A stretch of DNA of 64,000 nt from Bacillota bacterium (GTDB taxonomy: Bacteria > Bacillota > Negativicutes > CTSoil-072): assembly GCA_017889545.1 (NCBI GenBank), contig JAGFZV010000007.1:82435-146434 (forward strand), written 5' to 3'. Under the pieces are notes generated by a model, which searched no databases, was not told where the DNA came from, and saw only the letters and a list, made by a program, of their open reading frames with translations. Position numbers and translations under genes: made by a program. Below are positions 6,560-54,207 of the stretch, one piece after another; the stretch's first letter is position 1, and each line of letters begins with the position of its first letter.

Positions 6560-6832
6560 ATGTCCAAAAGGATTGGCGTAATTGGGATTGTTCTTAATAA
6601 TCCGCATGCTGTCGCCGACAAAGTGAATAGTATTATTAGTGGATACGGTCAAATCATCATTGGCCGGATGGGAATTCCTAAACAGGAAGAAAATGTCGGG
6701 TTGATTGCGCTTCTAATTGAGGGCAGCACCGATGAGGTTGGCGCACTAACCGGCAAACTTGGCAACATTCCTGGTGTTATCGTTAAATCTGCACTTACTT
6801 CCCGGCAGCCGGCAAACAAAACAAATGCCTGA
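6560..6832 (+). CDS. Small conserved ACT-like protein. It may belong to the TM1266-type 'iron-only hydrogenase system regulator' family; this is low-confidence recollection
   Basis: 90 aa. Strong RBS (AAAGGAGG, then 9 nt, then ATG). Preceded by an extended -10 (TGTATAAT, about 6490). Followed by a hairpin at about 6858-6890. Confidence 0.5.
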   Translation: MSKRIGVIGIVLNNPHAVADKVNSIISGYGQIIIGRMGIPKQEENVGLIALLIEGSTDEVGALTGKLGNIPGVIVKSALTSRQPANKTNA

Positions 6833-11539: not shown

Positions 11540-11865
11540 CCCGGTCGAGCATACAAAAATCCCGCCCCTGAAATCAGGGACGGGATAGATAAACCCGCGG
11601 TACCACCCTGCTTGCATTGCAAGCCGCTCGTATTTCGGGTACAGAACGTGCACATTCGATACCCTATCCTCTGCTAACGGTGGCAGTCCGGCGCGGTCTA
11701 CTCGACAAGCTTTCAACCTGCTGCTCATGGGTGTATTTCAGCCAGCCCATCTACCGGGTCTCACCCCCCCCCGGCTCTCTGAAAGACGTTTCCGACTTAC
11801 TTATCCCAATCATTGCATTTCCTGCTATATTATTGACTCTACTTTAACAAAAGCAAATCCGCCTG
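11540..11865 (-). promoter_or_regulatory. Promoter plus T-box riboswitch leader (probable tyrosine specifier UAC) controlling aroF-tyrA
   Basis: The minus strand contains AGCAGGGTGGTACCGCGGG (T-box consensus, plus 11595-11610). A downstream terminator hairpin cccgtccctgatttcaggggcggg plus T5 (plus 11556-11586). An upstream GAAAUACA specifier-loop candidate (UAC at plus 11733-11735). AGAGAG and AGUAGA stem-I elements. Promoter TTGACA-17-TAAAGT (plus 11864-11869 and 11841-11846). Confidence 0.75.
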
Positions 11866-15106: not shown

Positions 15107-15135
15107 AATGGACCCCCCATTCTAAAATTCAGGCA

Positions 15136-16359: not shown

Positions 16360-16425
16360 AAATTCCATTTTTTCATTCCCCTTATCGCGGGATGTTCTGT
16401 ATTACCAATTGTCTTTCCTAAAGAT

Positions 16426-16452
16426 AGCCCGACTGGTATTGCCAGTCGGGCT
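16426..16452. other. Perfect 11-bp stem-loop between moaA and moeA
   Basis: agcccgactgg-tattg-ccagtcgggct. No adjacent U-tract on either strand. Confidence 0.5.
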
Positions 16453-16606
16453 AAAGCTGTTGAAAAAGGTTAATCTGCGGCGTCACAACTGCGTTTACTT
16501 GCTTACGTACGTTGAGTACGCAACGCATCGCAAGCCTCCTTGTTCCTGGCATCTCAGCCTTTTTGAACAGCTCGTTCATTGGTTGAAAAGGTTAATCCGG
16601 AACATT

Positions 16607-17587
16607 TTAACCGCCAATTTGCGACATGCGCCGGTCAACCTCAGAATGCTTGTCAGTCGGACACAAATTATGTCCGGATGGTTTGGCACGAACTGCTTGC
16701 AGAAAAAGCTGCTTGATTTCCTCGTCAGTCGCCCCGGATCGCAACGCTGTTTTTACATCAATTTCTGTATTCGATAATAGGCAGGGCTTAAATTTACCAT
16801 CTGCAGTTAAACGCAATCGGTTGCACTGTCCACAAAAATGTTCTGAAATCGGGGTAATAAACCCAAAACTTCCTAAGGCTCCCGGCAAACGGTAATAGCG
16901 AGCCGGTCCATTGCCCGTATCCAACGCAATCGGCTGCAATAACCCTTTTCCCAGCTTATGAATCCTTTCTTTGACCGCCGCAACGCTGTATCCCCTTCCT
17001 GCCTTGTCGGCGCCAATCGGCATATATTCAATAAAGCGAACAGCAACAGGCAGGCGATAAATTAAATCAACAAAATAGATCAAGTCATCATCCGTAAAAT
17101 GTTCTGACAGGACGACATTGAGCTTCACCGGCGTAAGACCGGCAGCCAACGCATTTTTAATTCCTGATAACGTTTCTTCCAACCGCCCCCGTCTGGTTAT
17201 AAGAGCGAACTTTTCCGGATTGGCCGTATCAAGACTAATATTAACTCGCTGTAATCCCGCCTTCTTCAATTCTTGCGCCATGCCGGACAACAAACTCCCA
17301 TTTGTTGTCATCGACAGATCAGTAATTATATTTAGTGCAGTTAAACGACTGATAAAGCCGGTTATTCCTTTACGAACCAAAGGCTCTCCTCCGGTCAAGC
17401 GGACCTTTCTGACGCCAAGATGACCGACAATACGAATCATACGTAATATTTCTTCGTAAGATAATATTTCCGCATGCGGCAAAGGCGATACGCCTTCATC
17501 CGGCATGCAGTAAGTACAGCGAAAATTGCAACGGTCGGTCACAGATACCCGCAGATAGTCAATAGCCCGGTTAAAGGAATCAATCAT
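16607..17587 (-). CDS. moaA: GTP 3',8-cyclase (radical SAM)
   Basis: 326 aa. CNFRCTYCMP radical-SAM motif and the C-terminal auxiliary cluster CGQCNRLRLTADGKFKPCL. Confidence 0.9.
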   Translation of the reverse strand: MIDSFNRAIDYLRVSVTDRCNFRCTYCMPDEGVSPLPHAEILSYEEILRMIRIVGHLGVRKVRLTGGEPLVRKGITGFISRLTALNIITDLSMTTNGSLLSGMAQELKKAGLQRVNISLDTANPEKFALITRRGRLEETLSGIKNALAAGLTPVKLNVVLSEHFTDDDLIYFVDLIYRLPVAVRFIEYMPIGADKAGRGYSVAAVKERIHKLGKGLLQPIALDTGNGPARYYRLPGALGSFGFITPISEHFCGQCNRLRLTADGKFKPCLLSNTEIDVKTALRSGATDEEIKQLFLQAVRAKPSGHNLCPTDKHSEVDRRMSQIGG

Positions 17588-26855: not shown

Positions 26856-27896
26856 CTATTTGCCGAACGGACAAACAGGATAGGTGCAAGGTTTGCAATT
26901 CAAACACAAACCGCCATAGCCCATCGAGGCAAAATCAAGTTTTGACAGCCATTCTCCCGCCAATACGCGCGGAAATACGAAATCAAACACAGTAATCTTG
27001 GCATACATGCCGCAGCCCGGCATGCCCATGATGACAGTATCACCGTGATATGCAAGCATAAACATTGCCCCGGGCAATACCGGCGTCCCATAGGTAACGA
27101 CTTGCGCACCCGTAGCCCGGATCGCATCCGGCGTAACATCGTCAGGATCAACGGACATTCCACCGGTAGCAATAATGACATCCATTCCGCGTTTTTTGAA
27201 TTCCATAATGGAATCCCGGATACGATCACGATCATCGGGCTGAAAAACAATATCAACCATTGTTGCCCCGTATGACGCTACTTTGTCCGCAAAAACCGGC
27301 GCATACCGATCTTTGATACGGCCATAATATACTTCATTCCCAGTTATAATCGCGCCGACTTTCAAGTTGCGAAGCGGTTTCACGGAAATAATTCCCGTAT
27401 ATTGGTCCGCAATGTTTTCAACAGATAACACGACGGTTTTATCCACTACCAGAGGAACAACCTTAATGCCCGCCAGCAAATCGCCGCGCTTGACCAATAT
27501 ATTATCATGGCGCGTGGATACTACTGCATTTTCAACCGTGTTAATTGCCGTGACTGCGTGACGGTTTACTTTTAATAAACCGTCGATTTGCGCCTTGATA
27601 TTGATCCGGCCTTCCGACGGTTCCGTCAGCAGAACATTTTCACCGGCCACCGCTTGAGCTATTCGGGCTATCGCATCATTTTCGTGCATTTGACCGGGCA
27701 GAAGATCAATCAGATAAATGTGATCTTTGCCGATGTTTTTTAAATGCGGAATATCTTCATCACAAATAACATGCCCTTTCTTAAACAAGGGCCCTTTATA
27801 TTCCCCCGGTACAATTTTGGATAAATCATGTCCAATAATCATACCTACAGCATCTTCTGTCCGCACTTTCCGTATAGTCACTGACAATCCCTCCAT
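26856..27896 (-). CDS. Molybdopterin-binding (MoCF-biosynthesis/CinA-type fold) domain protein with a C-terminal Cys cluster
   Basis: 346 aa. C-terminal half has the MoeA/MogA-like motif VIIATGGMSVDPDDVTPDA. Ends with CLNCKPCTYPVCPFGK. Confidence 0.55.
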   Translation of the reverse strand: MEGLSVTIRKVRTEDAVGMIIGHDLSKIVPGEYKGPLFKKGHVICDEDIPHLKNIGKDHIYLIDLLPGQMHENDAIARIAQAVAGENVLLTEPSEGRINIKAQIDGLLKVNRHAVTAINTVENAVVSTRHDNILVKRGDLLAGIKVVPLVVDKTVVLSVENIADQYTGIISVKPLRNLKVGAIITGNEVYYGRIKDRYAPVFADKVASYGATMVDIVFQPDDRDRIRDSIMEFKKRGMDVIIATGGMSVDPDDVTPDAIRATGAQVVTYGTPVLPGAMFMLAYHGDTVIMGMPGCGMYAKITVFDFVFPRVLAGEWLSKLDFASMGYGGLCLNCKPCTYPVCPFGK

Positions 27897-31349: not shown

Positions 31350-33104
31350 ATGTCTTCTTTAGCACAGATTAAAGATGTCGTGCAACAATTCGCAGAAGCT
31401 TTCAGTGCAACGCTAAAAGTCAATGTGGAAGTCTTTGACCAGATCGAACGGATTGCCGGAACAGGAACTGCCAAGCAATTAATAGGATGGCCGCTGCTGC
31501 CAACCGGAATTGTTAGAAAGCGAATATATGAAGATGGATTAAAAAAATTTATATTTGACAATCCTGGTCAGGATATTTCCTGTCAGCCTTGTCCCCGCCG
31601 AAACTGCTGCCATTATAAAAAGGCAGTACATGCCGCTTTGGAACATAATAACAAAATTATCGGCATCATCGGTATTGTAGCCGAAAATGATGAACAAGAA
31701 AAATTGATTGAATATAATAATTATTCCATGCTCAATCTTGTTGATAAAATAGCGAATTTAATAACGGCCAAAGTCGAAGAGCATCAAATATTAAAACAGG
31801 TTAAAACCTATGCAGAACTTATGCACGTGGCAACAAATGCCATTGATAAGGGTATGCTTATGCTTGACAATGAACTTCGAATTATCGATATAAATGATTA
31901 TTTGATCAATAAATTAGTGTTACAAAGAAAATTCGTATTACACCAGCATGTGCGTACCATATTGCCGTCATTAATACTTTATAAAAACGCTTCAGCGCAG
32001 TTGAATATTGAACAACAGGAAATCGTATATTCTGTCAACAACAAATACATCTATCTTATCTGCACTTTGAAGCCCATTAGCATCAACAATGAATTAACTG
32101 GCTGCCTCTGCTTAATTGAAGACTATAAAGACACCACAGAACGGGCATACGCCACTATTACAAAGCAGCAGCCGATCTACTTGAGTGATATTATTGGTTT
32201 AGACCAACAATTCACCGATTTCAAAAATACTGTCAAGAATGTGTCCTTAAACGGTTCAACCATTTTACTCACAGGAGAGACCGGCACCGGCAAAGAATTG
32301 TTTGCCAGAGCCATACATTCAGAAAGTTCTAGAAGTAACGGTCCTTTTGTTACAATTAATTGCGGCGGAATTCCAGAGACATTGTTAGAAAGTGAATTGT
32401 TCGGATATGAAAAAGGGGCTTTTACCGGAGCAAACAGTATGGGTAAACACGGAAAATTTTTTATGGCTAACAAAGGTACATTATTTCTTGATGAAATTGA
32501 AGCCCTGCCTCTTTATCTCCAGCCAAAACTGCTGCGTGTAATCGAAAGCAAAGAGATCGAAAGGATCGGCGGAGTGCGAACCATTCCGATCGACGTCCGA
32601 ATTGTTGCCGCAACAAATGTTATGTTGGATGAAATGGTGCAGAAAAAGGAATTTAGGGAAGATTTATTTTACCGACTCAATGTCGTTGCTTTATTTATTC
32701 CGCCATTGCGAGACCGAAAAACGGATATTCTCGTATTAACTGAACATTTTATAAAAAAATTTTCAGCTAAATTCAATAAAAATATTATTGGATTGAGCGA
32801 TCCTGTAAATCATATATTTTGTACTTATCATTGGCCTGGAAATGTACGAGAATTGCAAAATGCAATTGAGTATGCGATCAATATGGAACAAAGCCATTAT
32901 ATAACAGTTGAAAATCTACCGATGCAATTGAAAAATAGACAAAAAGAAGATCATGCACATACATTGCATGGAATGGAACTGGATAATCTCAAGCAAGCAT
33001 TAGATCGATTTGGCTGGACAGAAGCTGGAAAAATCGAAGCCGCAAACTATTTAGGAATCAGTCGTTCCACTATCTATCGAAAAATAAAAAAATTTAATTT
33101 GTAA
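31350..33104 (+). CDS. Sigma-54-dependent transcriptional activator (bEBP) with an N-terminal Cys-containing sensor region, an AAA+ domain and a C-terminal Fis-type HTH
   Basis: 584 aa. GETGTGKELFARAIH Walker A. GAFTGA sigma-54 contact motif (GYEKGAFTGA). C-terminal HTH AANYLGISRSTIYRKIKK. N-terminal region carries CQPCPRRNCCH. Confidence 0.9.
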   Translation: MSSLAQIKDVVQQFAEAFSATLKVNVEVFDQIERIAGTGTAKQLIGWPLLPTGIVRKRIYEDGLKKFIFDNPGQDISCQPCPRRNCCHYKKAVHAALEHNNKIIGIIGIVAENDEQEKLIEYNNYSMLNLVDKIANLITAKVEEHQILKQVKTYAELMHVATNAIDKGMLMLDNELRIIDINDYLINKLVLQRKFVLHQHVRTILPSLILYKNASAQLNIEQQEIVYSVNNKYIYLICTLKPISINNELTGCLCLIEDYKDTTERAYATITKQQPIYLSDIIGLDQQFTDFKNTVKNVSLNGSTILLTGETGTGKELFARAIHSESSRSNGPFVTINCGGIPETLLESELFGYEKGAFTGANSMGKHGKFFMANKGTLFLDEIEALPLYLQPKLLRVIESKEIERIGGVRTIPIDVRIVAATNVMLDEMVQKKEFREDLFYRLNVVALFIPPLRDRKTDILVLTEHFIKKFSAKFNKNIIGLSDPVNHIFCTYHWPGNVRELQNAIEYAINMEQSHYITVENLPMQLKNRQKEDHAHTLHGMELDNLKQALDRFGWTEAGKIEAANYLGISRSTIYRKIKKFNL

Positions 33105-33142
33105 GCCACCGATCTATCTTCACAATTAGAAAAACGTTATTT

Positions 33143-33182
33143 GCCTGATTGATTCAATCAGGCAAATGACGTTTTTCTTTTT
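33143..33182 (+). terminator. Perfect 12-bp inverted repeat just after the activator gene; possible terminator or operator
   Basis: TTGCCTGATTGA-T-TCAATCAGGCAA. A T-rich tract (gtttttcttttt) starts 8 nt downstream. Confidence 0.4.
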
Positions 33183-33195
33183 CATCACAACCCAT

Positions 33196-33262
33196 GATAT
33201 GAGATGGTATCTCATATCAATATGACATGTCATCTCATGTCGCGTTGACATGAGATGACATA
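33196..33262. promoter_or_regulatory. Cluster of inverted repeats; candidate upstream activator sites for the sigma-54 activator
   Basis: ATATGAGAT-ggt-ATCTCATAT (33197-33217). ATGTCATCTCATGTC-gcgttg-ACATGAGATGACAT (33227-33261). Shared TGAGAT/ATCTCA core, positioned about 100-160 nt upstream of the -24/-12 element. Confidence 0.6.
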
Positions 33263-33356
33263 ATTTGCACACTAAATTTTTGTTCATGGAACTTATTTTC
33301 CTCGCAAACCTTGAAGAACAACGGTATTATTTGTATTTTTTGAAAATTCATTTATT

Positions 33357-33373
33357 TGGCACATAATATGCAT
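33357..33373 (+). promoter_or_regulatory. Sigma-54 (-24/-12) promoter of the CoA-transferase operon
   Basis: TTGGCACATAATATGCAT matches TGGCAC-N5-TTGCA with correct GG/GC spacing. Lies about 50 nt upstream of the RBS AAAGGAGG. Confidence 0.8.
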
Positions 33374-33421
33374 TACTAACAAGTGATTGTATATAACATT
33401 CATTGTAAAGGAGGTTTTTGG

Positions 33422-34993
33422 ATGGCAAAGTTTATGACCGCCGAAGAAGCCGTACAACTCATAAAAAATGCTGATACGGTAGCCATCTCTGGATTTTTAG
33501 GCATGGGCCACCCAGAAGAAATTTCATTGGCAGTCGAAAAAAAATTTTTAGAAACCGGCACCCCACACGATCTTACTCTGACCTTTGGCGCCAGTCAGAA
33601 TGACGGCAAAGGAAATTGGGGACTCAACCGCTGGGGAAAAGAAGGATTGGTCAAACGCATCATAGCCGGTCATTGGGGTTTGCAACCCGACATGGTAAAA
33701 CTGGCAACGGAAAACAAAGTTGAAGCCTATAATTTCCCTCAGGGTGTAATGATGCATCTATATCGGGCCATTTCCGGTAAAAAACCAGGAATTTTAACTC
33801 ATGTTGGTCTAAAAACATTTGTTGATCCACGGGAAAAAGGCGGAAAATTGAATGACAAAACAATAGACGATTATGTCAGCGTTATGAAAATAGACGGAAA
33901 AGACTATTTATTCTACAAGTCATTCCCTATTGATGTTACGATCATTCGAGGAACAACAGCGGATGAAAAAGGAAATATTACGATCGAAAAAGAAGGAATT
34001 GCACTTGAATTTTTAACTTTGGCGCTGGCAGCGCGGGCATGCGGCGGCATTGTTATTGCCCAAGTAGAAAGAGTAGTAAAATCCGGAACGTTAGACGCGA
34101 TGCAAGTGAAGGTTCCCGGCATCATGGTAGACGCCATTGTCGTTGCTGCACCTGAGAACCATTGGCAGTCTACCGCAGAACCCTATGATCCGGCCTTGTC
34201 GGGAAATATCAAGATCCCTTTGGACAGCATACCGCCATTATCATTGAACGAACGAAAAATCATCTGCCGCCGGTGCGCAATGGAACTGATGCCAAATTCA
34301 GTTGTCAATTTAGGTATTGGCATGCCGGAGGGCGTTGGGTCAGTTGCAGCGGAAGAAGGTTTTTGCGACTCCCTCACTATGTCGGTTGAGCCTGGTGTAA
34401 TTGGCGGCGTCCCGCAAGGTGGAAAGCGTTTTGGCTGTTCAGTAAATCCAGAAGCGATCATTGATCATCCCTATAGCTTCGATTTTTATGATGGCGGCGG
34501 TTTAGATCTGACGGTGCTTGGCATGGCGGAAATGGATCAAAAAGGAAACGTAAATGTCAGTAAATTCGGACCGAAAATTGCCGGTGCCGGAGGATTTATC
34601 AACATCACCCAAAGTACAAATAACGTCATTTTCTGTGGAACAATGACTGCCGGTGGATTAAAGCTGGGCGTAAGAGATGGAAAACTTTTAATTTTACAGG
34701 AGGGAAAAATTAAAAAGCTGGTCAACGAAGTTGAACAAATTACCTTCAGCGGCGATTACGGCAGAGAAAGCGGCCAAAAAATTCTTTATGTAACAGAAAG
34801 AGCAGTGTTTGAACTACGGCCAGAAGGCGTAACCCTGACTGAAATAGCCCCTGGTATTGATTTGGAAAAAGATGTTTTAGGTCAAATCAATTTTCGACCT
34901 AAAATTTCATCAACGCTTGCAATAATGGATCCACGGATTTTCCAGGACGAACCAATGCAGCTCAAAAATGATATTATGGCAAAAATTGAATAA
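33422..34993 (+). CDS. Acyl-CoA:carboxylate CoA-transferase, propionate CoA-transferase (Pct/YdiF) family
   Basis: Start at MAKFMTAEEAV (RBS GGAGG). Strong resemblance to Pct-type enzymes (SGF.G.G.PE, GHW, FINITQ). Catalytic-Glu region EMDQKGNVNVS. Confidence 0.8.
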   Translation: MAKFMTAEEAVQLIKNADTVAISGFLGMGHPEEISLAVEKKFLETGTPHDLTLTFGASQNDGKGNWGLNRWGKEGLVKRIIAGHWGLQPDMVKLATENKVEAYNFPQGVMMHLYRAISGKKPGILTHVGLKTFVDPREKGGKLNDKTIDDYVSVMKIDGKDYLFYKSFPIDVTIIRGTTADEKGNITIEKEGIALEFLTLALAARACGGIVIAQVERVVKSGTLDAMQVKVPGIMVDAIVVAAPENHWQSTAEPYDPALSGNIKIPLDSIPPLSLNERKIICRRCAMELMPNSVVNLGIGMPEGVGSVAAEEGFCDSLTMSVEPGVIGGVPQGGKRFGCSVNPEAIIDHPYSFDFYDGGGLDLTVLGMAEMDQKGNVNVSKFGPKIAGAGGFINITQSTNNVIFCGTMTAGGLKLGVRDGKLLILQEGKIKKLVNEVEQITFSGDYGRESGQKILYVTERAVFELRPEGVTLTEIAPGIDLEKDVLGQINFRPKISSTLAIMDPRIFQDEPMQLKNDIMAKIE

Positions 34994-35005
34994 GGAGGAC
35001 AAATC

Positions 35006-36142
35006 GTGAATTTCACTTTCACAGAAGATCAGGAACTCATCCGAGCTATGGTTCGGGAATTTGCTCAGGCAGAAATTGCACCGAGATCAGCCCATCTGGA
35101 CGAAACCGGAGAATTTCCTGCTGACACCATGCAACGACTAGCTGAGCTAGACCTTACCGGAATGCCTTATCCGCAGATATATGGCGGTGCTGCCGCAGAT
35201 TATGTCAGTTACGCCATTGTTATCGAAGAAATTTCACGCGCCTGTTCGTCTACCGGGGTCATTCTTGCCGTTCATACTTTGGCCGGAATTCCGATTTATC
35301 AATTCGGGACGGAGGAACAAAAACAACTCTGGCTGCCGAAGCTCATTGGGTACCAGGCCTTAGGAGCGTTTGCCATCACTGAACCCGCAGCAGGCAGCGA
35401 TGCCGGCTCACTGCAAACAACGGCAGTGCCGGCTGGAGATAGCTATATATTAAACGGCACCAAGACATTTATCACAAACGGCGCTGAAGCAGGAATATTC
35501 ATCGTCATGGCTTTGACCAAAACCGGTATTGGAACAAAAGGAATTAGTGCTTTTATTGTCGAGAAAGGCACGCCCGGATTTACTATCGGTAAGCATGAAA
35601 GAAAGATGGGCATCCGTGGCAGCAGTACTACCGAACTGATTTTTGCCAACTGCCGGATCCCAAGCGCAAATCGGATAGGGAAAGAAGGTGACGGCTTTAA
35701 AATTGCAATGGCTGCTCTCGACGGCGGTCGCATCAGCATTTCCGCCCAGTCAACAGGGATTGCGCAGGCCTGTTTGGATGAAGCAATTGCTTATTCCAAA
35801 GAACGCGTACAATTTAACCGGCCGATTTCGTCCAATCAGGCCATTCAGTGGATGCTGGCAGAGATGGCTGCCGACATCAGCGCAGGCAGACTATTAACCT
35901 ACAAAGCGGCTTACCTGAAGCAAATCGGCAAACCGTTCACTATGGAGGCAGCCATGGCCAAACTATTCGCATCCCAAATGGCGGTGCGCTGTGCCACAAA
36001 GGCAGTACAAATTCATGGCGGCTACGGCTATATTAAAGATTTTAAAGTAGAACGTCTTTATCGGGATGCGCGCATTCTCGAGATTTACGAAGGTACTTCC
36101 GAGGTGCAAAAAATGGTTATTGCCGGCAACCTCTTGCGGTGA
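35006..36142 (+). CDS. Acyl-CoA dehydrogenase (short-chain/butyryl-CoA dehydrogenase-like)
   Basis: 378 aa. Acyl-CoA DH fold with catalytic-base region YEGTSEVQ and an FAD-binding pattern. Confidence 0.85.
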   Translation: MNFTFTEDQELIRAMVREFAQAEIAPRSAHLDETGEFPADTMQRLAELDLTGMPYPQIYGGAAADYVSYAIVIEEISRACSSTGVILAVHTLAGIPIYQFGTEEQKQLWLPKLIGYQALGAFAITEPAAGSDAGSLQTTAVPAGDSYILNGTKTFITNGAEAGIFIVMALTKTGIGTKGISAFIVEKGTPGFTIGKHERKMGIRGSSTTELIFANCRIPSANRIGKEGDGFKIAMAALDGGRISISAQSTGIAQACLDEAIAYSKERVQFNRPISSNQAIQWMLAEMAADISAGRLLTYKAAYLKQIGKPFTMEAAMAKLFASQMAVRCATKAVQIHGGYGYIKDFKVERLYRDARILEIYEGTSEVQKMVIAGNLLR

Positions 36143-36175
36143 TACATAAATTAAATTAACAGGAGGAGAAAAGTT

Positions 36176-37786
36176 ATGGCATTGAAAACAAAAGAACAGT
36201 ATCAGGAGAGCATCCGAAATCGAAAACCGATGGACGTTTGGTTTCTCGGCGAAAAGGTTGACGATGTGACTACCTTCCCCCCGTTGGCGGCCAGCTTTGC
36301 AGCCATATCAAAAGTATATGAGTTAACTGGCGACCCTGGTTGGAAGGATATGCTCACAACAACGTCGCACCTTACCGGCGAAACCGTCAGTATTTACAAT
36401 GCACCGCTGCAATCGGCAGAGCAAGCCAATAACAAAACCCGCGCAGCGCGTGCTTTAGCCGAGGTAATCGGTTGCTGTACACATCGTTGTACCGGTTCGG
36501 AAGGGTTTGCCGGTTTAGGTCCCTGTACCTATGACATGGACCATGATTTGGGAACAAATTATTTCGAACGTTTTACCAAATTTATGGAATATGTACAATC
36601 GAATGATTACAGCTGCACTGTCACCGTAACTGACGTAAAAGGGCTGCGCACCTTGCCTCCGAATAAGCAGCCGGATCGGGATATGTATGTTCATATCGAT
36701 GAATATCGCAAGGACGGAATTGTTATCAGCGGTTATAAAGCAAATCAAACCGGAATTTTATTTGCTCATGAAGTAATTATTGTTCCCACAACAGCCATGA
36801 AACCGGAAGATAAGGATTTTGCTGTAGCGTGTGCAATTCCTGCTGATGCTCCCGGAATTACCTATGTATTGGGCCGTACTCCGCAAGACAAACGTTTCTT
36901 TGAAGTAAACGAAGATATTGAAGGCATTGACCTTGGAAAAATGTACGCTGACCATCAAGCACTTGCTTATTTTGATCATGTATTTGTTCCAAACGAAAGA
37001 GTGTTTTTATGCGGTGAAACCGAATATGTCGGCCGTCTGTTAAATTACTTTACGGCTGTTCATCGTTTGACGGCTGGTGGCTGCAAGGCTGGCGGCTGCT
37101 CGGCATTAGCCGGTGCAACCAGCCTAATTTCCGACATGATTGGGGTTAATAAAGCCGGCCATATTAAAGAAAAATTATCAGAAATGGCAATGACGGCAGA
37201 AACATGCTACGGTCTTTCTCTGGCTGCCGGGACTGAAGGCTTTAAACATCCCAGCGGATTTTGGATCCCCAATCCATTGCTTGCCCATACCACAAAATTC
37301 ACATGCACCTCAGCGCCCTTCAATGCAGTCCGTACTGCACGCGAAATTATCGCCGGAACCGGCGAAACTGCCTGTTCCGAATTAGACATGCGTAATCCGA
37401 CAATCGGCAAAATGGTTCAAAAAGCATTCAATCCCGGCAATCCTGCATATGACGCCTTTGACCGTTTAAGAGCCACCCGTTTTGTAGAACATATGGTTCG
37501 AGGATCCAACTGGACAGCGATGGCCTTGCATGGCGGCGGCAACTCCGAAGCTGCTCGTATGATGGCTGGCCGCTTTACTGATTGGAAACATTTGCAGGAC
37601 ATGGTTAAAGTAGCTACCGGAATTGAAAAAGACCCCATCTTTTGCAAAGATGTGTTGGATTCCATCGGCAGGCGCGCGGGACGAATTGATACTACACTGG
37701 ATCTGCCTACTATGAGTGACGTACCCGTTGAAAGTAAAAAAGTAGTTTTTGAAAAAAGAGAGCTTGTGGGATCCGGAAAAAAATAA
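36176..37786 (+). CDS. 4-hydroxybutyryl-CoA dehydratase / vinylacetyl-CoA delta-isomerase (AbfD) family protein
   Basis: 536 aa. CCTHRC (C-x3-C) and H-x6-C (HRLTAGGCKAGGC) match the [4Fe-4S] ligand pattern of AbfD. HpaB-like fold. Confidence 0.7.
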   Translation: MALKTKEQYQESIRNRKPMDVWFLGEKVDDVTTFPPLAASFAAISKVYELTGDPGWKDMLTTTSHLTGETVSIYNAPLQSAEQANNKTRAARALAEVIGCCTHRCTGSEGFAGLGPCTYDMDHDLGTNYFERFTKFMEYVQSNDYSCTVTVTDVKGLRTLPPNKQPDRDMYVHIDEYRKDGIVISGYKANQTGILFAHEVIIVPTTAMKPEDKDFAVACAIPADAPGITYVLGRTPQDKRFFEVNEDIEGIDLGKMYADHQALAYFDHVFVPNERVFLCGETEYVGRLLNYFTAVHRLTAGGCKAGGCSALAGATSLISDMIGVNKAGHIKEKLSEMAMTAETCYGLSLAAGTEGFKHPSGFWIPNPLLAHTTKFTCTSAPFNAVRTAREIIAGTGETACSELDMRNPTIGKMVQKAFNPGNPAYDAFDRLRATRFVEHMVRGSNWTAMALHGGGNSEAARMMAGRFTDWKHLQDMVKVATGIEKDPIFCKDVLDSIGRRAGRIDTTLDLPTMSDVPVESKKVVFEKRELVGSGKK

Positions 37787-37916
37787 AGAAATTTTTCCTG
37801 TAATATAAAATGCTTCTCTTAGGAGGAACGACTATCGTAAGCCGTTCCTCCTAATGCACTCACATAAAAAAACAGTATCACTTGCAGTCTTAAAAATTCT
37901 TGAATGGGGGGATAAA

Positions 37917-39239
37917 ATGGACAAGGTTGCAACTAACCCTAAAGGTCTCGATACTACATTGGTTGCACAAATGCTCCGGCTTCGGTGGTACATTTATGGA
38001 ATATTGTGTCTAGGCTATTTTTTGGTCTATTTTCACAGAGTTTCTACTGCCGTAGTAGCACCCGAATTAACTGAGGCATTTGGATTAACTGCAGCTAGCC
38101 TGGGACTGCTAAGTTCTGCTTATTTTTATCCTTATGCATTGGCACAAATTCCTTCAGGAATATTAACTGATTATTTAGGTCCAAGAAAAACAGTTACGTT
38201 TTTTATTCTTGTTGCTGCAATTGGCGCTTTTCTCTTTGGTACAGCCTCAACATATTCTTGGGCTATTGTGGGCCGGTCATTAGTGGGTCTCGGTGTTGCT
38301 TTCATCTATATTCCGGTTATGAAGATTCTTGCTGAATGGTTTCGCCAGCATGAGTTTGCAACACTCACCGGTCTGCTGTTATCCGTCGGCAATATTGGCG
38401 CTCTTTCGGCCGCTGCGCCGCTCAGCCTGCTGGTTGGAGCGGCCGGATGGCGAAATTCATTTATTTATATTGGAGCAGTTACTGTAATATTGGCCATTGG
38501 TTGTTGGTTAATTATTCGTAACAAGCCGCAAGATATGGGCTTGCCGACTGTCTACGACATAGACGGATCTGCACCTCCGGCAGGTTCTACAGATTCACTG
38601 ACACTCAAAGAATCCATGAAGCTTATTGTCAGCAACCGAAATTTTTGGCTGTTATCTCTATGGTATTTCGTATTTTATGGTACGGTAATGGGTTTTCAAG
38701 GCTTATGGGCCACACCGTATCTTATCGACACGCAATCGTTAGCCAAACCAGCGGCAATACAAATTTTAACTTACATCGCATTAGGAATGATTTGCGGATG
38801 CCCTCTCTCTGGTTATCTGTCTGACCGTGTGCTGCATTCCCGTAAAAAAGTACTAATCATTGGCACTGTCTTATATACTTTTTCTTGGTTGCTTCTTATA
38901 GTCATATCCAACTCACAGCCCGCCTTCATCCCCTATCTCTTTTTTGCTATGGGCTTCTTCGGCGGTTTTTTTGTCGTAATTTATGCTTGGTTTAAAGAAT
39001 TGATGCCTTCAAAAATCGTTGGTACTGCAATTGGCGCAATGAACTTCTTTCCGTTTGTCGGCGGAGCTATTTTCCAACAAATAATGGGCAGTATTATTGG
39101 CTCTTATCAACGCATCAACGGCGCCTATCCATTGGATGCATATATTAATTCTTTTTGGTTCTGTTTTGCTTCTTTGGCAATCGTTACCATCGCGATACCC
39201 TTTGCTTCGGAAAATCAGAGTTTAAAACGGAAAGCTTGA
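37917..39239 (+). CDS. MFS transporter (probably a carboxylate/organic-acid porter) ending the sigma-54 operon
   Basis: Start at MDKVATNPKGL after RBS GGGGGG. 12 TM helices. The ORF-track start is 37854. Confidence 0.7.
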   Translation: MDKVATNPKGLDTTLVAQMLRLRWYIYGILCLGYFLVYFHRVSTAVVAPELTEAFGLTAASLGLLSSAYFYPYALAQIPSGILTDYLGPRKTVTFFILVAAIGAFLFGTASTYSWAIVGRSLVGLGVAFIYIPVMKILAEWFRQHEFATLTGLLLSVGNIGALSAAAPLSLLVGAAGWRNSFIYIGAVTVILAIGCWLIIRNKPQDMGLPTVYDIDGSAPPAGSTDSLTLKESMKLIVSNRNFWLLSLWYFVFYGTVMGFQGLWATPYLIDTQSLAKPAAIQILTYIALGMICGCPLSGYLSDRVLHSRKKVLIIGTVLYTFSWLLLIVISNSQPAFIPYLFFAMGFFGGFFVVIYAWFKELMPSKIVGTAIGAMNFFPFVGGAIFQQIMGSIIGSYQRINGAYPLDAYINSFWFCFASLAIVTIAIPFASENQSLKRKA

Positions 39240-45565: not shown

Positions 45566-46579
45566 ATGCCGGTACTATTAGATGTACAAAACCTTTCTGT
45601 CATTTTTCACACATATGCTGGGACCGTTCGGGCTGTCAATAACGTCAGTTTCACAGTAAACCAAGGTAAAATCATAGGCATCGTTGGTGAATCGGGCTGC
45701 GGCAAAAGTGCGACAGCACAGGCGATCATGGGGATACTTCCACAACCGCCCGCCGAAATGATCAGTGGCGGAATTTACCTTGATGCAGCAGAACTGACTG
45801 CCTTGTCGGAAAAAGAGTTGCAACATATCCGCGGCAAAAAAATGAGTATGATTTTTCAAGATCCAATGACTGCCTTAAACCCGGTACTGACAATTGGCCT
45901 GCAAATCGCAGAAATGTTTATGCACCATCAACACTTAGCTTATAAAGATGCATTACTGCAAGCGGAAAAAGCGTTGTATTCCGTTGACATTCCAGCTCCC
46001 AAGGCCCGTCTTGAACAATATCCGCACCAATTAAGCGGAGGCATGCGCCAACGGGTAATGATTGCGATGGCATTGGCTTGTCAACCGAAACTGATCATCG
46101 CTGACGAGCCGACGACTGCACTTGATGTAACGATACAAGCGCAAATCATCGATTTGCTGCGATCAAAAAACCAAAAATTAGGCACTTCTATTATTTTAAT
46201 TTCTCATGATTTAGGCGTCATAGCCAGTCTTTGCCAGCGAGTTCTTGTCATGTATGCTGGTGAAATCATCGAAGCCGCCCCAGCCGCTGATCTATATCGT
46301 CTGCCAGCTCACCCTTATACTTACGGATTACTGCAATCAGTCCCACGGCCTGACCGCAAAAACCATGGTTTGCTCTCTATTGCCGGTCAACCGCCAAATC
46401 TCCTAAAAATTTCTTCTGGGTGTTCTTTTGGCCCGCGCTGTTCTTATTCCATGGAAATTTGCCGGCAAAAACCGCCTCTGCTGTCCGTTGGCGAACAACA
46501 TGCTACCCGTTGCTGGCTGGCTCACACAGATTCACCGCACCGGCAAATGCTCTTGCAAGGAGGGCTATTGATCAAATGA
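45566..46579 (+). CDS. oppD: Oligopeptide ABC transporter ATP-binding protein
   Basis: GESGCGKS. LSGGMRQRVMIA. C-terminal oligopeptide-ABC Cys motif (CSFGPRC...C). Confidence 0.85.
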   Translation: MPVLLDVQNLSVIFHTYAGTVRAVNNVSFTVNQGKIIGIVGESGCGKSATAQAIMGILPQPPAEMISGGIYLDAAELTALSEKELQHIRGKKMSMIFQDPMTALNPVLTIGLQIAEMFMHHQHLAYKDALLQAEKALYSVDIPAPKARLEQYPHQLSGGMRQRVMIAMALACQPKLIIADEPTTALDVTIQAQIIDLLRSKNQKLGTSIILISHDLGVIASLCQRVLVMYAGEIIEAAPAADLYRLPAHPYTYGLLQSVPRPDRKNHGLLSIAGQPPNLLKISSGCSFGPRCSYSMEICRQKPPLLSVGEQHATRCWLAHTDSPHRQMLLQGGLLIK

Positions 46580-47553
46580 ACACAACGATTTTATCTGTCG
46601 ATCGTCTCAGCAAATTTTTTGTCTTAAACCGGACTTTTTTAGGAAACGCTGCTGCAACCGTTAAAGCGGTAGATACTGTAAGCTTTAGTATATTTCCAGG
46701 GGAAACGTTAGGTTTGGTGGGTGAAACAGGCTGCGGAAAATCAACTCTTGCCCGAACAATTGCCGGCCTATATTCACCGACGGAGGGAAAAGTTCTGTTT
46801 AAAGGGCAAAACATTCACTGTGACCATGGAAAAGAAACGAACATGCTGTTCAAGCGCCAAATACAAATGATCTTTCAAGATCCCTATTCATCACTAAACC
46901 CCCGGATGACCATTCATGATATTATTGAAGAGCCGCTTAACATTCACAAACTCGCAAAAGGAAAAGAAAAAGAAGCGCGAATTTCATCTCTTTTGCTTCA
47001 AGTGGGATTAAACCCGGAATATGGCAGCCGTTTCCCGCATGAGTGCAGCGGCGGGCAAAGGCAAAGGGTCGGAATTGCACGTGCCTTGGCAGTAAGTCCG
47101 GAATTGATTGTCTGTGACGAACCAATTTCCGCATTGGATGTATCCATTCAGGCGCAAATTATCAACTTATTAGAACAACTGCAAACCGAGTTAAGATTGA
47201 CATACTTATTCATAGCACACGATTTATCAATGGTTCGCCATATCAGCACGCGTGTTGCTGTGATGTATCTTGGTTCATTAGTGGAATTGGCGTCAACAGA
47301 AGAACTATATTCTCATCCTTTGCATCCTTACACGCAAGCATTGCTTTCTGCCATTCCCATTCCTGATCCGGCTATTGAGTCTCACCGGAAACGAATACTG
47401 TTGCCTGGTGATATTCCCAGCCCCCTTGATCCGCCATCCGGATGCAAATTCCACAGCAGGTGCCATTATGCAATGCCAATTTGCCAAAAATCTCCTCCGG
47501 AACTAACCGCAACGGATCTCAATCACTATACAGCCTGTCATTTGGTAAAGTAA
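46576..47553 (+). CDS. oppF: Oligopeptide ABC transporter ATP-binding protein
   Basis: Start MNTTILSV with ATGA overlap onto oppD. GETGCGKST. CSGGQRQRVGIA. C-terminal CKFHSRC. Confidence 0.85.
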   Translation: MNTTILSVDRLSKFFVLNRTFLGNAAATVKAVDTVSFSIFPGETLGLVGETGCGKSTLARTIAGLYSPTEGKVLFKGQNIHCDHGKETNMLFKRQIQMIFQDPYSSLNPRMTIHDIIEEPLNIHKLAKGKEKEARISSLLLQVGLNPEYGSRFPHECSGGQRQRVGIARALAVSPELIVCDEPISALDVSIQAQIINLLEQLQTELRLTYLFIAHDLSMVRHISTRVAVMYLGSLVELASTEELYSHPLHPYTQALLSAIPIPDPAIESHRKRILLPGDIPSPLDPPSGCKFHSRCHYAMPICQKSPPELTATDLNHYTACHLVK

Positions 47554-47628: not shown

Positions 47629-49038
47629 TTGAAAAAACGAGGTGATCAAATGCCTGGACAACCCTCTTCTCTGGACATCCGTCCCCGCATCCTGTATCAG
47701 GTTGCAAAAGCAGCCTGGGAGGGGCAATTGTTTGACCGGCGGGAAGAGATCTGTCAACTGGTTCTTACTGAATTCCAAGACAAAGCCAGCCGCCGCCAAG
47801 TAGCGAATCAAATCCGGATTGCAATGGGCTTAAATCCGCATGATTCCGACACAGTAATTGCAGAAAGTGATGAAGAGGCCTTGATGGGCTTGGGCAGCGA
47901 GCCTGTTATCGTCGCTAATACAGCTGCCTGTGAACGTTGTCCTGAAAACAACAGAAATTGTGAAAACATTTGTCCGCTTGGCGCCATCAGTAAAGATGAG
48001 TATGGAATACTGAAAATCGACCATGATCGGTGCCTGGGAGAAGGCGACTGCATATCAGCTTGTTCTTTTGGCGCGCTGGCGGAAAAATCCCAGTTTGTTC
48101 CTCTCATCCACTTGCTGCAACAAAAGACAAATCCGGTTTATGTTTCTCTTGCTCCTGCTTTTGTAGGACAATTTGGACCGGAAGTCTCACCTGGCAAACT
48201 AAGATCCGCACTATTGCGTCTGGGTTTCACGGATGTAGTGGAAACGGCCCTGTACGCCGACTTGATTACGATCAAGGAAGCCTTTGAATTTGATGATCAT
48301 GTTAAAACAACAGATGACTTCATGATCACCAGCTGTTGTTGCCCGGTATGGATAAAACTCATTGAAAACAAATTCCCTGAATTAATGCCGCATATCTCAC
48401 CTTCCGTTTCTCCCATGGTGGCATCCGCCCGTGTAATCAAAACGCTCGTTCCAGATGCCAAAGTGGTCTTTATCGGTCCTTGCATAGCAAAGAAAACAGA
48501 AGCCACTTTGCCGGACTTGCAAGGCGCAGTCGATTATGTACTGACGTTTCAGGAGCTGCAGGCGATCTTCGCTGCTGCCGCCATCTCACCTGCAGAACAA
48601 CCGGATGAAGAAAATCCGCAAGCATCTTGGAGCGGCCGGATTTACGCCCGTACAGGCGGCGTAAGCGAAGCAGTTGCCACCACCCTGCAAAAATTGGTTC
48701 CCCGCAGAGCATTAACGTTAATGCCGGTGAAAGTGGATGGAATACCTGACTGTCAAAAAATACTTGACCAAATTAAGCAAGGGCAGCTGTCCGCCAACTT
48801 CGTGGAAGGAATGGCTTGCAAAGGCGGCTGCGTTGGCGGCCCGGGACGAATAATTCCACCTGCCGAAGCCACCCTCCTTACAAACGAATACGGCAATCAG
48901 GCTAAATCCCAGACCCCTGTGGAAAATCCCGAAGTGTATACAATCCTTGCCCAGCTCGGTCAAGACCAAAAGATGCCGGCATTAACCGGGCAAAGTCCGA
49001 TGGGCTTGATTTTGGCACGGAAACTTGCTAAGAAGTAA
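47629..49038 (+). CDS. [FeFe]-hydrogenase H-domain protein with a non-canonical N-terminal Cys-rich region
   Basis: H-cluster motifs L1 TSCCCPVW, L2 GPCIAKKTE, L3 EGMACKGGCVGGPG. N-terminus has C-x2-C-x6-C-x3-CP and C-x5-C-x3-C instead of standard 2x[4Fe-4S] ferredoxin motifs, and a roughly 90-aa unrecognised leader. Probable start is the ATG at about 47650 (RBS AGGTGA). Confidence 0.75.
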   Translation: MKKRGDQMPGQPSSLDIRPRILYQVAKAAWEGQLFDRREEICQLVLTEFQDKASRRQVANQIRIAMGLNPHDSDTVIAESDEEALMGLGSEPVIVANTAACERCPENNRNCENICPLGAISKDEYGILKIDHDRCLGEGDCISACSFGALAEKSQFVPLIHLLQQKTNPVYVSLAPAFVGQFGPEVSPGKLRSALLRLGFTDVVETALYADLITIKEAFEFDDHVKTTDDFMITSCCCPVWIKLIENKFPELMPHISPSVSPMVASARVIKTLVPDAKVVFIGPCIAKKTEATLPDLQGAVDYVLTFQELQAIFAAAAISPAEQPDEENPQASWSGRIYARTGGVSEAVATTLQKLVPRRALTLMPVKVDGIPDCQKILDQIKQGQLSANFVEGMACKGGCVGGPGRIIPPAEATLLTNEYGNQAKSQTPVENPEVYTILAQLGQDQKMPALTGQSPMGLILARKLAKK

Positions 49039-49167: not shown

Positions 49168-50535
49168 ATGACCATTGTTAAGAAACCTGTTAAAATTGTA
49201 GAAACTGTTCTTCGGGACGGACACCAATCACTAGCCGCAACTAGAATGAGAACATCAGATATGATCCCAATGCTGGAACAACTTGATGAAGCAGGTTTCT
49301 TCGCCTTGGAAGCCTGGGGCGGCGCAACGTTTGACAGTTGCCTGCGTTTTTTAAACGAGGACCCCTGGGAACGTCTCCGTACCTTGAAAAAACATTTAAA
49401 GAAAACACCCATTCAGATGCTGCTGCGCGGTCAGAACGTGTTAGGTTACAATCACTATGCCGACGATGTTGTAAAAGAGTTCGTCAAACGGGCCGTTGGC
49501 AACGGGATTGGTGTGATCCGTATTTTTGATGCCTTAAATGATCCCCGTAACCTGGAAGTTGCCATGCATGCCGCAAAAGAATCCGGAGCTCATGTTCAGG
49601 GCTGTTTCGTCTACACGATTAGCCCCTATCATACAACGGAATCTTATATTACCTTGGCAAAGGAACTGGTTCAACGCGGTGCTGATTCAATCTGCATAAA
49701 AGATATGGCCGGGCTTTTGACCCCATATGCAGGGTACGACTTAATCAAAGCATTGAAACAAGAAATTGCGGTCCCGCTAGACCTTCATACGCATTACACC
49801 AGTGGGTTGGCATCCATGACCTACTTAAAAGCGATTGAAGCCGGCGTCGATATTGTTGATTGTGCGCTTTCCCCATTTTCCATGGGTTCTTCGCAACCAG
49901 CCACAGAAACAATGATTGCGGCGTTAAAAGGTACTCCATATGACACCGGTATCAATAATGATATTTTATTGCCAATTGCTGATTATTTCCGCGAAATCAA
50001 AAAGAATTTGACGGCTAGCTTCAATCTTACCAACGATATTAATGTCGATACCCGGGTGCTGACATCACAAATCCCCGGCGGAATGATGTCTAACCTGCTC
50101 AATCAACTAAAAGAACAAGGCATGGCTGATAAATTTAACGAATTATCCACAGAAATGCCGCGTGTCCGGGCCGAACTCGGCTATCCGCCCCTAGTTACTC
50201 CTACCAGCCAAATTGTCGGATCAATGGCTGCTTTTAATGTAATTCTTGGGCAGCGTTATAAAGTTGTTCCCCGTGAAGTGAAGGATTTGGCACGAGGCAA
50301 GTATGGCCGGACGCCGGTTCCCGTAGATCCGGAATTTCTCAAATCGATTATTGGCGATGAACAAGTGATTACGAGCAGACCGGCAGATCATATTCCGCCT
50401 CAGTTGGAAAGTTTGAAACAACAGTTAGCTGAAAATGGTTATCCGAACGCATCAATCGAGGATGTTCTGAGTTATGCATCCTTCCCCGAAGTTGCTTTGA
50501 ATTTTTTCCGTGAAAACCGAACCGTTTGTATGTGA
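49168..50535 (+). CDS. Carboxyltransferase 5S-type subunit (oxaloacetate decarboxylase alpha / pyruvate carboxylase B family) lacking a biotinyl domain
   Basis: 455 aa. N-terminal TIM barrel VETVLRDGHQS...DMAG. No C-terminal AMKM biotin attachment motif. Promoter TTGCAT-17-TACAAT upstream. Confidence 0.75.
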   Translation: MTIVKKPVKIVETVLRDGHQSLAATRMRTSDMIPMLEQLDEAGFFALEAWGGATFDSCLRFLNEDPWERLRTLKKHLKKTPIQMLLRGQNVLGYNHYADDVVKEFVKRAVGNGIGVIRIFDALNDPRNLEVAMHAAKESGAHVQGCFVYTISPYHTTESYITLAKELVQRGADSICIKDMAGLLTPYAGYDLIKALKQEIAVPLDLHTHYTSGLASMTYLKAIEAGVDIVDCALSPFSMGSSQPATETMIAALKGTPYDTGINNDILLPIADYFREIKKNLTASFNLTNDINVDTRVLTSQIPGGMMSNLLNQLKEQGMADKFNELSTEMPRVRAELGYPPLVTPTSQIVGSMAAFNVILGQRYKVVPREVKDLARGKYGRTPVPVDPEFLKSIIGDEQVITSRPADHIPPQLESLKQQLAENGYPNASIEDVLSYASFPEVALNFFRENRTVCM

Positions 50536-53590: not shown

Positions 53591-54052
53591 TCAGGGATCC
53601 ACGTTTTCTTTCCCGCTTATCGAAACAATATCGATAGCAACCACACAACAACCTGCTGCCAATTCTTCCGTTACATTCGCAAAAGCTGAGTCGCCGGCAA
53701 TATGAGCGATTAAGCGGTTCAGCGCCATTACTTTCTCCGCTTCATCCGAAACAATCCTGGCTGTGCCAAAGACCAAGACAGAAGTGTATCGAGTAGCGCA
53801 AGCGCATGCTTTTGCTCCAAAAACGGTTTTTTCCGTGTGGCTTACTTCAAAACATATTTTTCTGTTTGCCGCAATATTCATTAACTTTTGTCCTTCATGC
53901 GCGCAATGAAAATATATCTTTCCATCTTGATAAGCGTAGTGAAGAGGAGTGATATATGGCTGTCCTTCTGCGCTGCAAGTCGCCAATCGGCCGGTATTGC
54001 CCTGTTGCAAATAATCAACTGACTGTTGCTGTGAAAGATATTTTTGCGGCAT
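53591..54052 (-). CDS. Pyridoxamine 5'-phosphate oxidase-family (NimA-like) flavin-binding protein
   Basis: Start MPQKYL. Split-barrel FMN-binding pattern. Promoter TTTACA-17-TAGTAT overlaps the palindrome ACAACGACGTTGT (about 54150-54170). Confidence 0.65.
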   Translation of the reverse strand: MPQKYLSQQQSVDYLQQGNTGRLATCSAEGQPYITPLHYAYQDGKIYFHCAHEGQKLMNIAANRKICFEVSHTEKTVFGAKACACATRYTSVLVFGTARIVSDEAEKVMALNRLIAHIAGDSAFANVTEELAAGCCVVAIDIVSISGKENVDP

Positions 54053-54207
54053 ATAAAAAACCTCCCTTAAATTAACGGAATATGTATATAATTCTCGATA
54101 AAACACAATAATCCTATGCATAACAACAAAAAAATTAGAAAATCAGGTTTATACTAAGTTTTGACAACGTCGTTGTAAACATCAGAAAACATTACCCTTT
54201 CTTATGG

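Follow-up and report, generated by a model that had tools for sequence, protein, structure and literature searches.

A probable group B [FeFe]-hydrogenase gene on a Negativicutes contig

We analyzed a 64,000-nucleotide stretch of a Negativicutes genome (assembly GCA_017889545.1, contig JAGFZV010000007.1, positions 82,435 to 146,434), hereafter the window, and focused on one gene in it that probably encodes a catalytic [FeFe]-hydrogenase of group B. An earlier note on the sequence had described an open reading frame (ORF) at 47629..49038 (+) as a small [FeFe]-hydrogenase-like protein with a non-canonical N-terminal module. The ORF is real and lies on the plus strand, but its start was misplaced. 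TTG at 47629 is an over-extended start, and the true start is almost certainly ATG 47650, because a ribosome-binding sequence, GAGGTG (47639..47644, +), lies 5 nt upstream of it and the orthologs begin with MPGQP and are about 462 aa long. The coding sequence, stop codon included, accordingly runs from 47650 to 49038 (+) and specifies 462 aa. Residue numbers refer to this protein throughout, except that some Pfam and NCBIfam ranges, marked as such, refer to the 469-aa ORF.

The protein opens with a mostly helical N-terminal extension (residues 1-93, 47650..47928), which contains Cys35 (codon 47752..47754). Two Cys runs follow, C94-x2-C97-x6-C104-x3-C108-P (47929..47976) and C128-L-G-E131-G-D-C134-I-S-A-C138 (48031..48063). 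The catalytic, H-cluster-binding H-domain (48130..48864) was delimited by Pfam Fe_hyd_lg_C, an AlphaFold2 (AF2) model and Foldseek, and is followed by a Cys-free C-terminal tail (48865..49035) with a conserved TPVENPxVY motif; all of these features are on the plus strand. The 15 Cys of the protein are divided among the H-site region (six), the ferredoxin-type F-domain (seven), position 35 and position 368. C368 is also found in the characterized group B hydrogenases CpIII and MeII.

The H-domain retains the H-cluster site and the proton pathway

Pfam Fe_hyd_lg_C matched residues 169-405 of the 469-aa ORF with a score of 240.4 bits (cut-off 22.1, E 3e-71), a similarity far beyond chance. The three H-cluster motifs named in the earlier note, TSCCCPVW, GPCIAKKTE and EGMACKGGCVGGPG, were all confirmed by direct translation and fit the patterns expected of P1 (TSCCP-type), P2 (xPCxxKxxE) and P3 (ExMxCxxGCxxG). 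L1/P1 (TSCCCPVW) occupies residues 227-234 (48328..48351, +), L2/P2 (FIGPCIAKKTE) residues 274-284 (48469..48501, +), and L3/P3, with M388, C390 and C394, residues 386-399 (48805..48846, +). The three consecutive Cys of L1 were assigned roles by analogy with C221, C222 and C223 of CpIII: C229 is supernumerary, C230 would transfer protons and C231 would bind the [4Fe-4S]H subcluster. C278 in L2 is also an H-cluster ligand, and the F274/G276 pair of this motif stands where CpI has T351/M353, as in CpIII (F266). In an alignment with CpI and CpIII, E210, E213 and S254 were the equivalents of CpI E279, E282 and S319, and C230 that of CpI C299; K281, E284 and M388 corresponded to CpI K358, E361 and M497. 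The H-cluster ligands C231, C278, C390 and C394, the proton-transfer residue C230 with E210, E213 and S254, and likewise K281, E284 and M388 were unchanged in 121/121 orthologs. As judged from these residues, nothing is missing from the H-cluster site or the proton pathway of the H-domain. The catalytic H-cluster that the earlier note had considered plausible is still best described in that way, with all four Cys ligands, the proton-transfer Cys and the proton-pathway residues present and invariant.

The AF2 model of the whole protein had a mean predicted local distance difference test (pLDDT) value of 84 and a predicted template modeling score of 0.87, and pLDDT in the H-domain was mostly 85-98. 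Foldseek aligned the model to CpI, DdH and CbA5H with a probability of 1.00. Among Protein Data Bank (PDB) chains, all of which belonged to group A, identity to the model was 22-24% with a template modeling score of about 0.7, and the best sequence match was a group A enzyme (E 7e-36). Since group A chains alone were matched, and at that E value, no close relative has a solved structure in the PDB copy searched.

A HMMER search of 1.84 billion representative sequences returned 356 relatives at E<=1e-30. Full-length orthologs, 65-97% identical, number more than 120 and were found in Sporomusa, Pelosinus, Thermosinus, Lucifera, Methylomusa and Dendrosporobacter and in Negativicutes metagenome-assembled genomes (MAGs), which makes the source of the window a Sporomusaceae-type Negativicute; the closest species-level genomes, Sporomusaceae UBA1887 and Lucifera butyrica, are 70% identical. 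Against an 87%-identical ortholog, nonsynonymous differences per site (pN) amounted to 0.075 and synonymous differences (pS) to 0.72, indicating that the gene is functional. These comparisons show that the protein belongs to a vertically inherited clade under strong purifying selection. A pseudogene or a Nar1-like non-catalytic protein was ruled out by the invariant ligands and proton pathway, a pN/pS of about 0.1 and saturation of the synonymous substitution rate (dS).

Assignment to subgroup M2a/B2

The best NCBIfam model was TIGR04105 (FeFe_hydrog_B1, monomeric [FeFe] hydrogenase) at 376.6 bits, and group A models reached 171 bits or less. The TIGR04105 score falls short of the curated cut-off of 450. 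Its alignment pairs residues 108-408 of the 469-aa ORF with model positions 163-459, leaving unmatched the first ~162 positions, which cover an extra 2x[4Fe-4S] region. Membership in B1 was rejected on both counts, the score below the cut-off and the absence of this insertion. In BLASTP, CpIII (E 2e-99) was 40% identical across 398 aa and MeII (E 3e-101) 45% identical across 340 aa; both sequences were rebuilt from the supplement of Fasano et al. 2023 (bioRxiv 10.1101/2023.06.23.541094).

The C229, C230, C231 triad (TSCCCP) was invariant among the orthologs, and the triad, the L2 F/G pair and Ala170 of an APA motif (CpIII A162) all agree with CpIII. TSCCCP is specific to group B, in which it defines the subgroup called M2a by Meyer and B2 by Calusinska, and none of 955 sequences from groups A and C contained it (Fasano et al. 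2023, bioRxiv 10.1101/2023.06.23.541094). Because the triad defines the subgroup, and because CpIII and MeII are far closer to the protein than the best group A chain in the PDB, we assigned it to M2a/B2. Membership in group B taken alone is very likely. The fuller description, a catalytic, cytoplasmic, single-subunit group B hydrogenase of the M2a/B2 ('TSCCCP') type, goes further and is probable.

The characterized M2a members, CpIII, Megasphaera MeII and ToHydA, are all active H2 catalysts, with H2 evolution rates of 305 (CpIII) and ~100 (ToHydA) umol H2 per min per mg. CpIII (450 aa) shares with the 462-aa window protein the TSCCCP triad, the F-x-G-P-C motif in L2 and the APA motif, in addition to a helical N-terminal extension (82 versus 93 aa) and a stretched first Cys run that binds the distal cluster. 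MeII, from Megasphaera elsdenii, also a Negativicute, shares TSCCCP, FIGPC and the C-terminal TP(V/M)ENP; its N-terminal extension is much shorter, with about 45 aa ahead of the first Cys run. TSCCCP places the O2-stable ToHydA from Thermosediminibacter oceani, compared here by its published description, in this subgroup, and two F-clusters are a further feature in common. In ToHydA two [4Fe-4S] F-clusters have been demonstrated (about 10.8 Fe in the apo-protein), and the proton-transfer Cys confers protection through the Hinact state, as would be expected for the window protein. Bacteroides group B enzymes make H2 and are ferredoxin-linked. The B1 type, represented by Bacteroides BfHydM and TIGR04105, belongs to the same group B, but it has TSCCP in place of TSCCCP and an extra 2x[4Fe-4S] insertion that brings its F-clusters to four, an insertion that the window protein lacks.

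The earlier note had suggested a sensory or regulatory hydrogenase or a novel monomeric class, and neither proposal held. Sensory HydS proteins (TmHydS of group C, or M2f, and TamHydS of group D, or M2e) resemble the window protein in having an F/G or F/S pair in L2, the F/G form occurring in both TmHydS and TamHydS, and a two-cluster N-terminal F-domain. By contrast, they end in a cluster domain of the Cx2Cx4Cx16C type, sometimes together with a PAS domain, and have an altered proton pathway. Neither the proton-transfer Cys nor the Glu/Ser pathway has changed in the window protein or its orthologs; in the window protein no Cys follows C394, and Pfam detected no PAS or other C-terminal domain. 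The isolation of the gene from any partner-subunit genes and the presence of a TM1266-family regulator elsewhere in the same window would suit a HydS-like protein of group C or D, but the conserved neighbors do not include a kinase, a phosphatase or a transcription factor, and the nearest characterized relatives, CpIII and MeII, are catalytic. By similarity the protein is closest to characterized group B enzymes, and its full-length homologs constitute a known HydDB group, which argues against a novel class. On this motif, domain and similarity evidence we rejected the sensory and novel classes, which retain only a marginal probability.

The N-terminal extension and the first Cys run are normal for the subgroup

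The earlier note had singled out a roughly 90-residue N-terminal segment and an atypical arrangement of Cys behind it. The segment, 93 residues ahead of C94, is present, and its first 95 aa had no match among PDB sequences at E up to 10 and none in Pfam. It is not peculiar to this protein. AF2 predicted helices at residues 11-23, 31-41, 48-58 and 72-78, with pLDDT of about 80-88 over residues 11-60, and local alignment recovered the same three-helix pattern in the query, at least nine other M2a representatives and CpIII. In the HMMER search, several M2a representatives aligned from query residue 9-18 onward. The extension is also under constraint, with a ratio of nonsynonymous to synonymous substitution rates of ~0.06 against the 87% ortholog. 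An N-terminal extension of 80-100 aa is a described group B trait; in CpIII, 82 residues precede the F-domain, and the first run, C83..C87..C96-x3-C100-P, binds the distal cluster (bioRxiv 10.1101/2023.06.23.541094).

In the window protein, C94, C97 and C104 were assigned as ligands of the distal [4Fe-4S] cluster and C108 to the proximal cluster. The stretched spacing of this run is the form typical of group B, in which the first Cys run is variable across all enzymes (bioRxiv 10.1101/2023.06.23.541094). AF2 secondary structure over residues 87-145 was ferredoxin-like, although pLDDT of the F-domain was only 50-70, and over residues 94-150 Pfam returned weak ferredoxin-type matches only. These results show that both the helical extension and the stretching of the first run belong to the normal M2a architecture. 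The N-terminal region thus aligns as an ordinary F-domain, close to the outcome that the earlier note had itself named as counting against its view. What survives of the non-canonical module is the loss of a ligand in the second Cys run, described below.

The distal site is evolutionarily looser in the clade to which the protein belongs, with Tyr at position 94 in Sporomusa acidovorans. An ortholog from the MAG Pelosinus sp. bin.460 (L011 4001-5317, 61% identical) lacks the entire first run, C94, C97 and C104, while C35, C108, C128, C134 and C138 are kept; it has Thr at position 131 and Asp at 130. This ortholog presumably has no distal F-cluster, and it could be either a real single-F-cluster variant or an artefact of MAG assembly. 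In the metagenomic sister subclade represented by P0121 (P0271-P0302), most members carry two extra Cys together, C39, one helical turn after C35, and C103, next to C104; P0299-P0302 have neither. This pairing hints that helix 2 of the N-terminal domain may contact the loop of the first Cys run.

A carboxylate replaces a Cys in the second run of one clade

The second run had been noted as C-x5-C-x3-C. That spacing is correct, and the alignments allowed a sharper reading, C-x2-[E/D]-x2-C-x3-C: in C128-x2-E131-x2-C134-x3-C138, the distance from C128 to C134 is exactly that of C-x2-C-x2-C, and a ligand of the proximal cluster has been lost in one clade. One cluster of a ferredoxin fold takes three Cys ligands from the start of run 2 and the fourth from the Cys-Pro of run 1. 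Since run 1 otherwise binds the distal cluster and standard ferredoxin topology applies, the run 2 site would be the proximal, H-cluster-adjacent [4Fe-4S] cluster, and E131 would sit at its second ligand position; C138 was assigned to the distal cluster. The F-domain therefore holds seven Cys for eight ligand positions and falls one thiolate short of two all-Cys [4Fe-4S] F-clusters, unless C35 or a carboxylate completes the site. The shortfall is a deviation within the family and no ground for exclusion from group B. The second run is canonical in both close characterized relatives: CpIII has C121-x2-C124-x2-C127-x3-C131-P, whose C124 and final Pro are matched by Glu and Ser in the window protein, and MeII has CVGCQACVDAC.

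We compared position 131 in 98 sequences, consisting of the query, CpIII, MeII and the 95 nearest 50%-identity representatives of at least 380 aa, drawn from ~2,400 family representatives at E<=1e-10. Cys was present in 92/98. Glu131 occurred only in the query and P0121 (63% identical); the four others were degenerate or fragmentary. Within the query clade, the 121 Sporomusaceae-type orthologs had E (87) or D (34) and nothing else, and the metagenomic sister subclade of P0121 had E in 32 and D in 1 of 33 cluster representatives. Thus, position 131 is strictly E/D in all 154 clade members, though mean column identity is just 72%. The resulting pattern is that of a carboxylate-ligated or 3Fe-convertible site, CxxCxxC with the middle Cys changed to E/D together with a remote Cys-Pro (C108-P109). 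Cys35, in helix 2 of the N-terminal domain, was invariant in the same 154 members and absent from every other representative; other M2a enzymes, CpIII included, have a non-Cys residue at this position, most often Pro or Ala. Cys35 is hence a candidate substitute cluster ligand. As far as our searches show, the change from Cys to Glu/Asp at the proximal F-cluster, with the co-occurring Cys35, has not been remarked on before.

Proposed function and ligation of the proximal cluster

By analogy with CpIII and the Bacteroides group B enzymes, the protein is most likely a cytoplasmic, ferredoxin- or flavodoxin-linked enzyme that evolves H2. A low-potential ferredoxin or flavodoxin would exchange electrons with it, as in CpIII, MeII, ToHydA and the Bacteroides enzymes, and electrons would pass from the distal F-cluster through the proximal F-cluster to the H-cluster. 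The main role would be disposal of reductant as H2, and the TSCCCP loop probably permits a reversible, protective Hinact state. We further propose that the proximal cluster is held by C108, C128, C134 and the conserved carboxylate of E/D131, forming an Asp/Glu-ligated [4Fe-4S] site like that of Pyrococcus furiosus ferredoxin, which would be readily converted to [3Fe-4S]. Such ligation would shift the potential or spin state of the proximal cluster and hence the catalytic bias. P. furiosus ferredoxin and Desulfovibrio africanus ferredoxin III have the same C-x2-[D/E]-x2-C...C-P ligand pattern in a ferredoxin fold. They are free ferredoxins that use Asp, whereas the site in the window protein would be a relay beside the H-cluster, in which Glu predominates (87/121) and ligation is predicted from sequence.

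The more general proposal, that the clade (the Sporomusaceae-type orthologs and their metagenomic sister) has rebuilt the relay adjacent to the H-cluster so that the proximal F-cluster is no longer a standard all-Cys cubane, is a tentative one, which we hold to be slightly less probable than its opposite. The rebuilt cluster could be carboxylate-ligated, of the 3Fe type or ligated across domains, and potential and bias could be shifted in each case. We favor carboxylate ligation of a [4Fe-4S] cluster because of the strict conservation of E/D at position 131, but we grant it, at the most, an even chance. Ligation by Cys35 and a [3Fe-4S] cluster are both live alternatives. Several observations weigh against the main reading, an H2-evolving group B enzyme with a carboxylate-ligated proximal cluster. 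Cys35, being invariant, provides an alternative fourth ligand, and the low pLDDT of the F-domain leaves its model uncertain. Among the [4Fe-4S] ligands of ferredoxin folds, Glu is less common than Asp. Because the gene has neither a maturase gene nor a ferredoxin gene next to it, the partner with which the enzyme exchanges electrons and the direction in which it works are argued by analogy. A multi-omics study of Sporomusa sphaeroides counted one group B enzyme per genome, and in strain KIAC this single enzyme was not among the five transcriptionally active hydrogenases (PMC12456013); we infer that it is the ortholog of the window hydrogenase. The literature on group B enzymes of Pelosinus and Sporomusa yielded this genome-level count only and nothing biochemical on the clade.

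If Cys35 replaces the lost Cys131, the proximal cluster would be an all-Cys [4Fe-4S] cubane with the N-terminal domain stapled onto the F-domain, and E/D131 would be kept for another reason, such as a hydrogen bond or tuning of the potential. The gain of C35 and the loss of C131 coincide exactly across the 154 members relative to other M2a enzymes, although this co-occurrence amounts to a single phylogenetic event and so is not independent evidence. Counting C35 would also supply the eighth Cys for the eight F-cluster positions, and the MAG variant L011, which lost its first Cys run, kept C35 along with C108, C128 and C134. Strict E/D at 131 is nevertheless hard to explain if the residue is irrelevant, and with the low pLDDT of the F-domain any proximity of Cys35 to the cluster is conjectural. 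We consider it unlikely, at roughly half the weight of the carboxylate reading. A proximal [3Fe-4S] cluster, modeled on 7Fe ferredoxins and the medial cluster of [NiFe]-hydrogenases, would place a high-potential step beside the H-cluster that biases the enzyme toward H2 oxidation or throttles it. C-x2-[D/E]-x2-C...CP is the textbook signature of 3Fe/4Fe-convertible sites, as in D. africanus ferredoxin III and P. furiosus ferredoxin, and the only Fe-S model in Pfam to pass its own threshold was LdpA_Fe-S-bd (28.5 bits versus 27.6). LdpA is possibly a 7Fe-8S protein, a description for which a literature search found no paper. In CpII, catalytic bias is known to be tuned by F-cluster potentials. 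Yet genuine 3Fe sites usually vary at the substituted position, which here is strictly a carboxylate, and if a step of about -100 mV lay between the H-cluster and a distal cluster at ferredoxin level, the H2 evolution usual in group B would face an uphill barrier. We judge the [3Fe-4S] cluster a little less likely still than ligation by Cys35.

Regarding annotation, the gene should be described as a group B (M2a/B2) hydrogenase, neither a new class nor a sensor; most of its odd-looking features are the published signature of this subgroup. Group B enzymes are under current study for O2 stability and catalytic bias. With a carboxylate in place of Cys at the cluster that feeds the H-cluster in more than 150 sequence clusters, the clade would offer a natural test case for the effect of non-Cys ligation in the proximal relay on rate, bias and O2 tolerance, and a single subunit of 462 aa is easily expressed. 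If the proposal is true, the engineering of the relay and outer sphere attempted on CpI and CaHydA1 would already have been done by nature. The interest lies within hydrogenase enzymology and opens no new biological question.

Genomic context of the hydrogenase gene

As the earlier note had reported, the gene lies between a peptide ABC transporter operon of the opp type upstream and a carboxyltransferase downstream, and no hydE, hydF or hydG was found among the annotated ORFs of the window. The carboxyltransferase (49168..50535, +) is OadA/PycB-like (NCBIfam NF006761, 715.6 bits) and has no biotin-carrier domain. The description of the hydrogenase gene as monocistronic was not established: a scan around the gene found no terminator-like site and no convincing plus-strand promoter, an Rfam scan gave nothing informative, and the flanking gaps of 96 and 129 nt in the window shrink to 21 nt (to oppF) and 50 nt (to the carboxyltransferase) in a sister-clade contig.

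The opp operon precedes the hydrogenase gene in 3/6 contexts. The carboxyltransferase, a common though not constant neighbor, comes directly after it in the window, in Pelosinus and Thermosinus and in the sister-clade contig; S. acidovorans and the 87% relative lack it. The gene belongs to a conserved housekeeping block in which an aminotransferase and a 553-aa PRK/udk-like kinase recur together with the hydrogenase, joined in some genomes by the carboxyltransferase, and aspartate kinase and RF3 lie further along in several genomes. No ferredoxin, PFOR, maturase or regulator gene was linked as a conserved neighbor in the compared contexts.

In the 87%-identical relative, a 1150-aa fusion hydrogenase with Fer2_4, GltD-like Pyr_redox_2, Fe_hyd_lg_C and Fe_hyd_SSU domains is encoded between the aminotransferase and RF3 (L001 14837-18289; also in L002 and L003). 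The corresponding position of the window (53591-54121) has only a 176-aa PNPOx-like ORF, which points to lineage-specific gain or loss of a second [FeFe]-hydrogenase. In the opp operon, the ORF listed for the second ATPase (46420-47553, +, 377 aa) begins too early and shares 160 nt with the gene before it; its true start is probably near 46576, as the relatives have 325-327 aa.

The TM1266-like candidate at 6560..6832 (+) was borne out as a putative regulator of an iron-only hydrogenase system by TIGR03959 (100.4 bits versus a cut-off of 60.8). It lies ~41 kb from the hydrogenase gene and is unlinked to it. Its neighbors are a LysE-type exporter, a 271-aa ORF (6942-7757, -) and two M20 amidohydrolases; no hydE, hydF, hydG or hydrogenase gene lies near it, and it is an orphan.

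Other features of the window

A T-box leader at 11573-11822 (-) (Rfam RF00230, 121 bits versus a gathering threshold of 93) lies upstream of genes for 3-deoxy-D-arabino-heptulosonate 7-phosphate synthase (10458-11474, -) and prephenate dehydrogenase (9580-10461, -), and the locus looks like an aromatic-amino-acid T-box regulon. What looks like a sigma-54-controlled acyl-CoA catabolic operon occupies 31350-39239 (+), beginning with the gene for a sigma-54 activator (31350-33104). The genes after it encode a CoA-transferase, an acyl-CoA dehydrogenase, an HpaB-family protein with a possible relationship to 4-hydroxybutyryl-CoA dehydratase, and an MFS transporter. Molybdenum-cofactor genes occupy 13169-17587 (-), with MoaA at 16607-17587, MoeA at 15136-16368 and, at 13169-15106, a further MoeA that is fused to a PBP_like domain resembling periplasmic binding proteins; a separate gene at 26856-27896 (-) encodes one more MoCF_biosynth protein.

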